Origin: Octopus vulgaris
Taxonomy: Eukaryota
DNA length: 64,000 nucleotides
Assembly: GCA_951406725.2 (NCBI GenBank)
Contig: OX597831.1
Coordinates: 11,222,001 to 11,286,000, forward strand
Direction of reading: 5' to 3'
Position numbers and translations under genes: made by a program. Position 1 is the stretch's first letter. Every line of letters starts with the position of its first letter. The notes under the pieces are model-generated. The model worked only from the letters and a program-made list of their open reading frames with translations. It searched no databases and had not been told where the DNA came from. Positions 34,084 to 41,971 of the stretch are shown in pieces.

Positions 34084-34400
34084 TCAAAGGATAGACGGAC
34101 AGACAGATAGATAGAGAGAGATAGAGAGATAGATAGATAGATAGAGAGAGAGAGAGAGAGAGAGAGAGAGAGAGAGAGTAAGTCTATGAATAGATAGATA
34201 GACAGACTGACAGATGGATAGAGATAAGTATATAAATAGATAGACAGATAGATAGATAGATAGATAGATAGATAGATAGATAGATAGATAGATAGATAGA
34301 TAGATAGATAGATAGAAAGAGAGAGAGAAAGAGAGATAAGTATATAAATAGATATATAGACAGACAGACATAGATAGATAAATAGATAGATAACGACGAT
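34084..34400. repeat. (TAGA)n/(GA)n microsatellite, left end of the LINE array
   Basis: Direct reading. Confidence 0.9.
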
Positions 34401-34402
34401 AG

Positions 34403-34620
34403 ATTTCTTTATTAGCCACACAGGGCCGAACACTAAGGGGATAAAATAAAATGTAGAGCTTTTCCTTTTGAAAGAAAAAGAAGAAATAGAAAAAAAAGGA
34501 CGAGAAAATAAGTTTCCGATCAAATGTGATCGTGCAAAAGAAAAAAAAAGAAGCGATCAATAGGGATCGTGTATCACAGAAAATATCAAAAATGTAAAAA
34601 AACGGATTAGGTTTATGCCT
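34403..34620 (-). mobile_element. 3'UTR fragment of the same Tx1-like LINE family (diverged subfamily)
   Basis: tttctttattagccacacagggc...gtagagcttttc...caatagggatcgtgtatcacagaaa matches the 3'UTR of the long copy; TAGA repeats on both sides. Confidence 0.85.
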
Positions 34621-35120
34621 AGATAGATAGATTGGTAGATATATATATATATATATATATATATATATATATAGAGAGAGAGAGAGAGAGAGAGAGAGAC
34701 AGACAGACAGACAGACAGACAGACAGATAGATAGATAGATAGATAGATAGATAGATAGATAGATAGATAGATAGATAGATGGATGGATAGATAGATAGAT
34801 AGATAGATAGATAGATAGATAGATGGATGGATAGATAGATAGATAGATAGATAGATAGATAGATAGATAGATAGATGGATGGATAGATAGATAGATAGAT
34901 AGATAGATAGATAGATAGATGGATAGATAGATAGATAGATAGATAGATAGATAGATAGATAGATGGATAGATAGATAGATAGATAGATAGATAGATAGAT
35001 AGATAGATAGATAGATAGATAGATAGATAGATAGATAGATAGATAGATAGATAGATAGATAGATAGATAGATAGATAGATAGATAGATAGATAGATAGAT
35101 AGATAGATAGATAGATAGAT
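34620..35120. repeat. Compound (TA)n-(GA)n-(GACA)n-(TAGA)n microsatellite
   Basis: Direct reading; ~390 bp of TAGA with occasional TGGA variants next to the LINE 3' end. Confidence 0.95.
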
Positions 35121-38602: not shown

Positions 38603-39046
38603 ATGTTTCTTTATTAGCCACACAGGGCTGCACACAGACGGGACAAATTACAAGGTAGAGCTTTTCTTTTGGGGATAAAAAAGGTGGTTTGGTTTTCGAT
38701 CAAAAGGGATCGTAAAAGGAAAGAAAGAATAAAACAAAAAAGGGGGGATAAAAAGAAAAGGAAAAGGAAAAAAAATCAATCAATAAGGATCGTTATCACA
38801 GAAATGTCAATATAAAGTGTAAAGGAGAGGACAGGTGAGGTTTACCCGTGGAAAGAAAAGCCTACGGAAAAGACCATGGTAACCTCGGTCAATGAAGTCC
38901 CATGTATTTTTTTTTTTTGCAAATAAGCAACTCTCTGTATTAATTTTTACGGTTCATAGGATCATAGTCAAGGTGGCTTCGTCATTCATACGTGCCATCC
39001 TTGCTACATTCACCCATCTTTTTTTAAAACATTCACTAGACAAAAC
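38603..39046 (-). mobile_element. 5'-truncated Tx1-like LINE, second subfamily: last ~30 codons of ORF2 plus 3'UTR
   Basis: Encodes [30 protein letters not shown] versus VLSRERFNKRWVNVAKMVRASNETILSMIL* in the long copy; TAGA repeats on both sides. Confidence 0.9.
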
Positions 39047-39198
39047 AGATAGATGGATAGATAGATAGATAGATAGATAGATAGATAGATAGATAGATAG
39101 ATAGATGGATAGATAGATAGATAGATAGATAGATAGATAGATAGATAGATAGATAGATAGATAGATAGATAGATAGATAGATAGATAGATAGATAGAT
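39047..39198. repeat. (TAGA)n microsatellite between LINE copies
   Basis: Direct reading. Confidence 0.95.
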
Positions 39199-39560
39199 AT
39201 GTTTCTTTATTAGCCACACAGGGCTGCACACAGATAGAACAAATTACAAGGTAGAGCTTTTCTTTTGAATGTTTAAAAAAAAAAAAAAAAAAAAAAAAAA
39301 AAAAGTAAGGGGGAGTTTCGATCAAAAGGGATCGTAAAAGGAGAGAAGGAGGACAAAAAAAAGGGGGGTTAAAAAAAGGGGGGAGAGGAAGAAAAAAAAA
39401 AAAAAAAAATTGATCAATAGGGATCGTTATCACAGAAATGTCAATATGAAGTGTAAAGGGGAGGACAGGTGAGGTTTACCCGTGGAAAGAAAAGCCTACG
39501 GAAAAGACCACGGTAACCTCGGTCAATGAAGTCACATTTTATATTTCTTTTTTTTTTTTT
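39199..39560 (-). mobile_element. 3'UTR fragment of the Tx1-like LINE, second subfamily
   Basis: Closely matches 38603-38920 (cacacagggctgcacacaga...cctacggaaaagacc...aacctcggtcaatgaagtc); TAGA repeats on both sides. Confidence 0.88.
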
Positions 39561-41971
39561 TAGATAGACAGATAGATAGATAGATAGATAGATAGATAAT
39601 GAAAGCTACTGGTGATGTAACAGCTACGAGCGCTTCGTGTTGGTGGTAGTAGTAGCAGCAGCAGCAGCAGTGCTAAAAAGGTGTGGCAGCATTAGTAGTG
39701 GTGACAGGTGTGGGAGTCGGTAGAGCGTATGACCTGCACTTATGTCCACAGAATGTTAATTACGGCAGGTTACATGAGACGACGACGACCAGCGGAGTCG
39801 GAAGGTTTTGGTGTTGGCTTACAACACGGCTTGATTGCTGCTTAACCTTCTTGTCACTCCATGTTGACATTGGATGGTAGCGGCGGCGGCGGTGGTGGTG
39901 GCGGCGGTGGTGGTGGTGTTGCTGGTGTTGCTGGTGGTGGTGGTAGTGGTGGTGGTGGTGCTGGTGATTGCTGTGGTGGTCGTAGTGGTGGTGGTGGTGG
40001 TGGTGTGGTGGTGGTGGGTGCTGGTGATTGCTGTGGTGGTCGTAGTGGTGACGGTGGTGGTGGCGGTGATAGTGGTGGTGGTGGTGTGGTGGTGGTGGTG
40101 GTAGTGGTGGTGCTGGTGATTGCTGTGGTGGTGGTGGTGGTGGTGGCGGTGGTGGTGGTACTGCTGTTTGTGATATTGATGGTGGTTGTGGTGGTGGTAG
40201 TGGTGATGCTGTCGGTGGTGATGGCGGTAGCGATGTTTAAGGTAATATGATGGTAGTGCAGCGGTCAGGTTATTTTGGCGGGATGGATGTGGTGGTGGTG
40301 GTGGCGGTGGTGGTAATAATGACGGTGGCGTGATTGTGGTGATTGTGGTGACGGTGATTGTATTGGTGGTAGTGGTGATGACGGATGGTGGTGGTTGCAG
40401 ATATAGTAGTAATGGTGGTAATATTAGCATCGCTCGTGGTTGTGGTGGTTAAGGTGATGATTGAAGTGAAGGTAGTGGTAGAGGTGTTTGTTACGGTTAG
40501 GGTGATAGTTGTAATACTGGTACTAGTGGTGGTGGTGGTGGTGGTGGTGATGGTTGTGCCGGTGGTGATGGCGGCGCTGGTGAAAGTAGTGGCGATGATA
40601 TATCCGTGGCGGAGCCCCTATCGATATCTGATAATAATAATTGGTCGAATAAGTCAATAATGTTAATTGGGGACGCTATTAGTAATGAGAGCCATCTTCT
40701 TATTGACATTGGCCGAATGAATCACGCGTCTTCAATTGTGGATAAGGTTACATGCTTTTGTGATTGACAGCATGTGTGTATGTGTGTTTATATTTGCGCA
40801 TATATGCGTATATAATTGTGCACACATACCCGCACACTCGTACCCGAGAGTCAGTGAACGTAGAACAGAAAGTGTCGGTAAATAAGCGTCAACGATCGAG
40901 CAGTGTTTGTAAGGGCACTCGTCTGTGTGTGTGTGTGTGTTTGTGTGTTTGTGTGAGCATGTTTGTGTGTGTGTTTGTGTGTTTGTGTGAGTATGTTTGT
41001 GTGTGCGTGTGCGAATGTGTGTGTGGGAATGTGTGTGGGAATTTGTGTGGGAGAATGAGTATGTGTATGTTTGTGTGTGTATGTGTGTGTGTGTGTGTGT
41101 GTGTGTGTGTGTGTGTGTGTGCTACAGTAAAAATATATCTGGCTGTGTAAGTTCGACAAATTCAATCATATTTTTCATAAATGGGGGAGATTAGATGTTA
41201 CAAATGAGATGAAATATTTATTCAATGGACCAGACGATCGTTTCGTACAGAAAGACAATAAATCCATTTTGAGAGTCTGAGTGGTCAACGGGTACTCATC
41301 AGTAGAAGAATAAGAAAAAATAAGAACATAATAAAGAAACAGATGGTCTTAAGAATTACATGGATATTGTGTTAGTAATTTTTAATGTGTCGTTGTTCTA
41401 GGATTCTTGTCTGTTTAAAATACGACTCACGTGGAACGGTTCGGTGATGATTTTTACAACATAGAAAAATAGGTAACGTTCTCTCTATCGGTTAGTGTAA
41501 ATGAGCTAACTATATACTCCATATAAGGAGTAAGAAGCAATAAGGAAGTACGGAATTTTTAAATACAGGAGACTGAAATTTGTATTTGACCGTTAATAAG
41601 CATTTAGGCTTTTTTTTTTTTAATTAGAATGTTTATGAGCCCTCATAAATGGTTAGTGGTATATAAACTTTATGATAGAATATTTATGCAAATAATATGT
41701 CAGACATATTATTTACATAAACTTTATACATATCTATCTATCTATCTATCTATCTATCTATCTATCTATCTATCTATCTATCTATCTATCTATCTATCTA
41801 TCTATCTATCTATCTATCAATCAATCATATATATATATATATATGAAAAAACAAGTCAAGATAGAAAATGCTAAAATAATTTCATAAAGAACATTTCATT
41901 ACCGGTTTCGGTTATTTTGAGACCTTTTCAACTTTTACATATACATATATATATATATATATATATATATA

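Follow-up and report, generated by a model that had tools for sequence, protein, structure and literature searches.

A stretch of 64,000 nucleotides of the Octopus vulgaris genome (contig OX597831.1, positions 11,222,001 to 11,286,000 of the forward strand, referred to here as the window) contains at 34,084-39,598 five copies of a long interspersed nuclear element (LINE), stacked head to tail and separated by GATA repeats. The question raised by this locus is whether the GATA/TCTA microsatellite is the site into which the element inserts or a tail which the element brings with it. The flanks of its copies across the genome indicate that the repeat is the target and not the tail, because tracts of equal length lie on both sides of the copies, marked target-site duplications are seen and copies inserted off target are free of any tail. 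The specificity is a strong preference, is not absolute and is weaker among old copies. It is a new target specificity inside a known class, that of Kibi and Koshi, and leaves the concept itself unchanged, sequence-specific Tx1 elements having been known before.

The element and its flanks across the genome

Full-length copies with a first open reading frame (ORF1) and an apurinic/apyrimidinic endonuclease (APE), the recovery of which had been proposed in a preliminary description of the window, have been identified elsewhere in the genome and are 5.9-6.2 kb long. ORF1 comprises about 620-750 codons and shows a weak match to the Pfam family zf-CCHC (E 0.002, under the cut-off). ORF2, which is 1149-1159 codons long from stop to stop and intact in four subfamilies, has the Pfam domains Exo_endo_phos (the N-terminal APE), RVT_1 and a C-terminal zf-RVT. 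This domain architecture, devoid of long terminal repeats (LTRs), is that of an APE-type non-LTR retrotransposon of the L1 group. Target-primed reverse transcription is an established integration route, and its marks, namely 5' truncation, an intact 3' end, target-site duplication and 5' inversion (at loci L095 and L191), are all found. At the 3' end are AATAAA and a small hairpin motif, AGCC/GGCT, with no poly(A). A comparison of 29 full-length copies separates the four subfamilies, A to D, which are about 80% alike (91% for C and D), and the identity of 98-100% within A, B and C suggests recent activity. A 5' 31-mer common to full-length copies has 146 exact matches in the genome, a lower bound for full-length 5' ends as at least one D-like copy has a different 5' end.

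The terminal 23-mer of C/D type has 6273 exact matches genome-wide, and 4607 of these 3' ends (73%) continue exactly as C-[A/T]-TATCTATC in one fixed phase. The opposite orientation is rare, with 5 matches at 3 sites among the 6273 running into GATAGATA (GATA). The terminal 25-mer of A type has 296 matches, and TCTATCTA is found at most 14 nt away from 117 of 136 forward-strand ends. With respect to phase, the six commonest classes comprise 202 of 234 ends and have G or C in first place, T or A in second and TATCT thereafter. The passage from the 3' end into TCTA repeat is also seen in contigs of three organisms (four runs), with 40-64 loose ends per run. The tabulation of flanks and orientation suggested in the preliminary description gives one phase and one strand; random orientation is not seen, the reversed sites being three in number. 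An element has been termed target specific where one sequence type makes up more than 20% of its flanks (Kojima 2015; PMC4494074), and the values here are 73% of 3' ends and 67-89% of 5' junctions.

As it is the 5' side that separates a target from a tail, it was counted with several samples. Each of the first 30 full-length 5' ends, out of 146, is preceded by a TCTA-type tract, in one case with (TTTC)n nearest the junction. The loci fetched hold 234 distinct 3' ends, of which 188 were scored (45 junctions lie outside the stretch and 1 is masked), a tract being defined as at least 12 nt in TCTA phase not more than 25 nt from the junction. Such a tract is present at 162 of the 188 junctions, while 2 have 8-11 nt, 1 is reversed and 23 are of other kinds. 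This set had been partly chosen around arrays, and two list-order samples were therefore counted too. For A type, the first 66 hits yielded 63 copies, and 48 of the 54 that could be scored have a TCTA tract. For C/D type, the first 73 hits gave 63 scorable copies, with a tract at 42 and 8-11 nt at 3 more. The tract is found in 30 of 37 C/D-type copies of at least 90% identity against 12 of 26 below that value, and in the fetched loci in 139 of 149 against 23 of 39. In the background, represented by 20 fixed-position stretches of 10 kb, the flank criterion holds at 1551 of 396000 positions (0.39%). Repeats of TA (1.8%) and AC (1.0%) are commoner there than those of TCTA (0.55%), which argues against a general liking for microsatellites.

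Target, tail and mode of insertion

Insertion appears to split a tract and to duplicate a short piece of it. In 83 young copies without another copy upstream, the median tract length is 83 nt on the upstream and 89 nt on the downstream side, the longer tract being upstream in 42 and downstream in 41, and the median of the summed tracts (167 nt) is near-equal to the length-weighted background (137 nt, from 17 tracts only) plus the duplication. Marked target-site duplications have been identified in 8 of 122 testable copies (60 shuffles gave a mean of 1.05 and a maximum of 4); they are 8-16 nt long and once 66 nt. The duplication at L185 departs from the repeat at the fourth base, so that repeat derived from the RNA can amount to about 3 nt at most in this copy. 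The off-target copies L271, L274, L276, L278, L279 and L298 end in TAT and pass into unique DNA with no tract, and the reversed copies L173, L312 and L314 have (GATA)n on both sides, are trimmed at AAAG/ATAG and lack TCTA. Copies with a 3' tract of just 6-14 nt also occur. The counts do not bear out the earlier idea of a new target supplied by each 3' end, since downstream tracts are no longer than upstream ones and the off-target and reversed copies have no TCTA tail.

The copy at L068 is flanked on either side by one half of a common repeat, and these halves are colinear in 47 of its 78 matches. Its paralogous sites were considered as candidates for an empty TCTA tract and rejected, as the 25 listed hold TA/TG between the halves; they show a pre-existing microsatellite slot only.

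Several observations weigh against targeting. The 5' tract is absent in 18 of 63 copies of the C/D sample and in 23 of 188 junctions of the fetched loci, and the C/D copies below 90% identity, with their 12 tracts in 26, include several that are tract-free on both sides. Marked duplication is lacking in 114 of the 122 testable copies. Contrary to a strict form of targeting, some copies have the tract on the 3' side alone; they may have been inserted where a compound repeat ends, been disrupted later or, now and then, received a tail. The background sample, of 200 kb and 17-24 tracts, is small. No empty allele of L273 was present among the listed joints of the four runs, in which paralogous copies swamped the site and contigs broke at the tract. 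A unit resembling a short interspersed nuclear element (SINE) has the last 45 nt of the LINE (hairpin and AATAAAGAAA), suggesting a SINE-LINE partner relation, and is followed by TCTA in none of its 33 strict-pattern copies. The strand-specific targeting of GATA/TAGA repeats claimed in the preliminary description is supported by orientation, phase and 5' tracts, as a preference and not as an absolute rule.

Judged from flanks, phase and strand, the targeting is likely led by the APE endonuclease. The enzyme would nick the GATA strand, at GATA/GATA or within about 3 nt of it, and prime reverse transcription there, giving one orientation and one phase, with pairing between the primer and the last few bases of the RNA as a possibility. 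Part of the tract would be duplicated through a second nick, about 8-30 nt off (once about 66). Both halves of the tract would remain targets in which later subfamilies could stack head to tail, and elsewhere unequal exchange between tracts has probably also duplicated copies. Target choice is described as set mainly by the endonuclease (PMC4494074), with an influence of its hairpin loop and possibly of RNA-DNA pairing (PMC1950540). The hairpin-loop position reads SNRIGSS in subfamilies A and D and is nearly constant in B and C. The same target has been kept by four subfamilies about 80% alike, which makes the determinant directly mappable.

We consider it unlikely that the targeting is led instead by pairing or by DNA shape, such that a loose nuclease nicks AT-rich DNA and integration follows only where the primer pairs with the RNA end UAUCU. 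In keeping with such a scheme, the 73 ends of the C/D sample include 62 with TATC, 3 with TATT and 3 with TATA, off-target copies mostly still start with TAT, and the trimming of reversed copies to AAAG/ATAG amounts to microhomology; end pairing and target flexibility have also been proposed as contributors for L1 (PMC1950540). Target variants, however, are seen from the fourth base onward and are duplicated upstream (L185, L143, L198), and therefore about 3-5 RNA bases at most would pair, too few to select long tracts in 2.8 Gb.

A 3' tail of (TCTA)n encoded in the RNA, with arrays built by template jumping or by insertion into such tails and with no targeting otherwise, is largely refuted already and is very improbable. 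A few copies with tracts on the 3' side only (L197, L283, L168), and largely so a copy at 14678-15062 of the window, would suit it, but a 5' tract is present in 93 of the 114 fetched copies that have no copy upstream. The absence of any downstream excess in length, the tail-free off-target and reversed copies and the 3' tracts of 6-14 nt are equally at odds with a tail.

Stacked copies in the window and elsewhere

The repeat being taken as the target, the array can be followed copy by copy (c1 to c5). Tracts were assigned from the sequence, and copies by alignment with the additions given.

34090..34402, no strand: 3' flank of c1, an imperfect tract of (GATA)n and (GA)n
34403..34620, minus strand: c1, 3' untranslated region (UTR) fragment of an old subfamily (alignment to references and genome)
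34621..35120, no strand: compound tract, of which 34728-35119 is (GATA)n with GGAT variants
35121..38143, minus strand: c2, 5'-truncated copy of 3.0 kb, young subfamily A (alignment, ORF and domains)
38144..38436, no strand: (GATA)n tract, spacer of c3 and c2
38437..38573, minus strand: c3, 3' end of subfamily A, about 130 nt, with one additional terminal GAAA unit
38574..38602, no strand: 28-nt tract with GGAT marker, repeated in register across c4
38603..39046, minus strand: c4, ORF2 C-terminus and 3' UTR of a C/D-like subfamily
39047..39198, no strand: (GATA)n tract, spacer of c5 and c4
39199..39560, minus strand: c5, C/D-like 3' UTR fragment, the 5'-most copy of the array
39561..39598, no strand: 5' flank of c5, a tract of nine units beyond which lies non-element DNA
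14678..15062, minus strand: sixth copy, solitary, within a compound TA/GATA microsatellite

All five copies of the array are on the minus strand, at coordinates which the preliminary description had given correctly within a few bases; the sixth copy had escaped it. The 3' end (CCCTGTGTGGC-AATAAA motif) is retained in all five, and TAGA-type repeats flank each of the five on both sides, the (GATA)n spacers being 28 to about 500 nt long and the tracts near c1 imperfect or compound (TA, GA, GACA, GATA). The tract at 39561-39598 is no copy's tail. The GGAT-marked tracts around c4 are likely a target-site duplication of about 29 nt.

Copy c1 is 70-76% identical to the references A to D and 85% to its closest counterpart in the rest of the genome. 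Copy c2 is 99.9% identical across 3010 nt to the full-length copy L031 and has an 877-residue frame with reverse transcriptase (RT) and zf-RVT domains (35425-38058); its frame break at an A-run near 38006-38011 is shared by other copies. Copy c3 is 100% identical to c2 and subfamily A, and c4 and c5 are 83-91% identical to subfamilies C/D and 79% to each other. At the 5' tip of c2 (38138-38143), 5-6 nt are an inverted copy of neighbouring element sequence at a small palindrome, which suggests fold-back of the cDNA.

By alignment to the references the array contains three to four lineages with five distinct truncation points, and five separate insertions spread over time are the best explanation for it. 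The earlier statements that each copy has its 3' terminus, a truncation point of its own and TAGA on both sides, that at least two and probably three subfamilies are involved, and that simple tandem duplication does not account for the array are all upheld. An origin of this array by tandem duplication, or through an error of assembly where the microsatellite is long, has little to commend it: repeats with identical junctions elsewhere (L035, L066, L056), degraded-looking tracts (L033, L052) and the identity of c3 to the end of c2 point that way, but these truncation points and subfamilies, and the comparable mixed-subfamily arrays on many contigs, do not.

Across the genome, 30 of the first 100 A-type ends have a neighbour within 15 kb, where uniform placement expects 0.3%, and all 22 adjacent A-type pairs are on the same strand. 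Another copy lies directly upstream in 22 of 54 A copies as compared with 6 of 63 copies of C/D type. On a rough estimate the share of tracts alone accounts for the stacking of C/D, and that of A is well above it; young copies therefore go preferentially into hot spots, which are often tracts 500-1600 nt long. Most neighbours in arrays differ in truncation point. Identical 5' junctions are shared by four copies in L035 and by pairs in L066 and L056, resulting from tandem duplication or local assembly error. Arrays have grown by repeated insertion into one tract, with tandem duplication at some loci. For the array of the window, with its five different junctions, independent insertions are supported.

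Random insertion with off-tract copies purged or lost, a passive accumulation as proposed for Waldo-A/B (PMC3812793), is scarcely credible here, for although insertions are probably well tolerated in microsatellites, the association peaks among the youngest copies (139 of 149), uses one phase and one strand and ignores commoner repeats.

Known systems, relatives and neighbouring features

The microsatellite targets listed for non-LTR elements are ACAY, AC, TC, TTC and TAA, with Waldo in (ACAY)n, Mino in (AC)n and Dong in (TAA)n, and the mechanism is called poorly understood (PMC3812793). Togen, which is NeSL-related, is found in (TG)n (PMC4640811). The GATA-repeat lineage resembles these four in being a microsatellite-specific non-LTR element and differs from them in clade and repeat unit. 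Waldo and Mino belong to the R1 clade and Dong to the R4 clade. TRAS and SART, of the R1 clade and inserted in telomeric repeats, share with it the oriented insertion in a tandem repeat and the stacked copies, whereas the arrays described here are interstitial and scattered over many contigs.

Closer likenesses are provided by Kibi in (TC)n, Koshi in (TTC)n and the crocodilian Tx1 families in (TTCC)n/(TTTC)n (PMC4494074, PMC3812793). The present lineage is likewise an APE-type non-LTR element preferring a microsatellite and passes the 20% mark by a wide margin, but its target is GATA/TCTA and not pure pyrimidine, its host is a mollusc and its subfamilies are mixed in stacks; its flanks are TCTA, a single copy (L168) having (TC)n on the 5' side. 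Keno is a Tx1 family targeting U2 snRNA (PMC4494074). Five relatives carrying U2 sequence score 385-464 bits against ORF2 and are similar in length, and in three of them the U2 sequence after the A-run of the element reads GTATCTG; the identity is about 30%, however, and the U2 relatives end in an A-run, which the GATA-repeat lineage does not. The window has no Rfam match, and the flanks counted in the census are microsatellite.

The comparison covered 80 relatives from metagenomes, 40 of which were scanned with Rfam, and included no named Tx1 reference. Among these 40, U2 sequence was identified in five, 5S rRNA in two and U1 in one. ORF2 scores 308-336 bits against the 5S-associated relatives and 206-210 against human L1 ORF2p, which is also its best match of solved structure (210 bits). 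Since the scores against U2-inserted, Keno-like elements are twice as high as those against human L1, Tx1-like, as distinct from a formal member of Tx1, appears a fair label, and the placement by the preliminary description in a LINE lineage of the Tx1 kind is supported at that level. The name Tx1 is absent from the protein-cluster and homolog matches of ORF2, and an atlas of clusters yielded generic RT/APE clusters only. In midpoint-rooted RT trees, subfamilies A to D lie inside their own 15-member clade of unnamed proteins with support 1.0 and do not group with the U2-associated relatives, the deeper position being without resolution. The nearest named proteins are those of the octopod Argonauta hians, with 57% identity across part of ORF2 and 70% in RT. 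The metagenome relatives are all distant (24-46% in the best segments), and TCTA-repeat ends were found in none of the 18 checked.

A large unnamed RT group on long contigs (P0311-P0386), about 44-56% identical, is sister to the lineage of A to D. In Patella caerulea, eleven relatives that are 30% identical (the P0134 cluster) have near-consecutive locus tags, SNE40_003393-003415, apparently on one contig, and probably form a further tandem array built by an element with a specific target. The distant relatives L331, L337 and L347, on contigs ending in 5S rRNA or U1 snRNA sequence, are likely further target-specific elements. The GTATCTG of the U2-associated relatives (L322, L328, L330) contains TATCT, with which the target of the GATA-repeat lineage begins; this is possibly a shared recognition core, or chance.

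The repeat annotation of Octopus vulgaris reports 80 L1-Tx1 families, 13 of them recently active (PMC13282606), and the GATA-repeat lineage may be among these; the words 'GATA' and 'target' are absent from the main text and one supplement of that work. No LINE targeting GATA, TAGA or TCTA was found in the published texts searched, with Repbase and Dfam outside the scope, and an earlier description is rather unlikely, though with an appreciable chance of existing.

Microsatellite-targeting APE elements are few, and GATA/TCTA adds a new repeat unit to them. More than 6500 3' ends with one phase and a strand bias of about 1500:1, together with intact and near-identical full-length copies, form a natural data set. 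In this animal group, microsatellite markers of GATA type are often adjacent to the LINE or interrupted by it. More tentatively, and with some doubt, we suggest a cephalopod Tx1 lineage, undescribed and active to this day, whose GATA-specific endonuclease would by repeated nicking turn long tracts into expanding hot spots with interstitial mixed arrays and whose TATCT core would be common with Keno. The intact copies would then offer a naturally occurring means of oriented insertion into GATA repeats, and such repeats are frequent in vertebrates as well.

The SINE-like unit is 174-188 nt long, often occurs in tandem pairs and is present in the window at 24403-24744, 32041-32393 and 54317-54420; a variant copy at 54317-54394 leads into a TA/TCTA tract. 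A LINE combining the SINE-type end with the UTR motif of the GATA-repeat lineage gave 0 matches. A frame of 303 codons at 56227-57135 shows a weak match to Otopetrin (E 1.3e-5, under the Pfam cut-off) and is possibly an exon. At 5760-7940 lies a compound (GAT)n/(GGT)n microsatellite of about 2 kb with a higher-order period of 102-108 nt.

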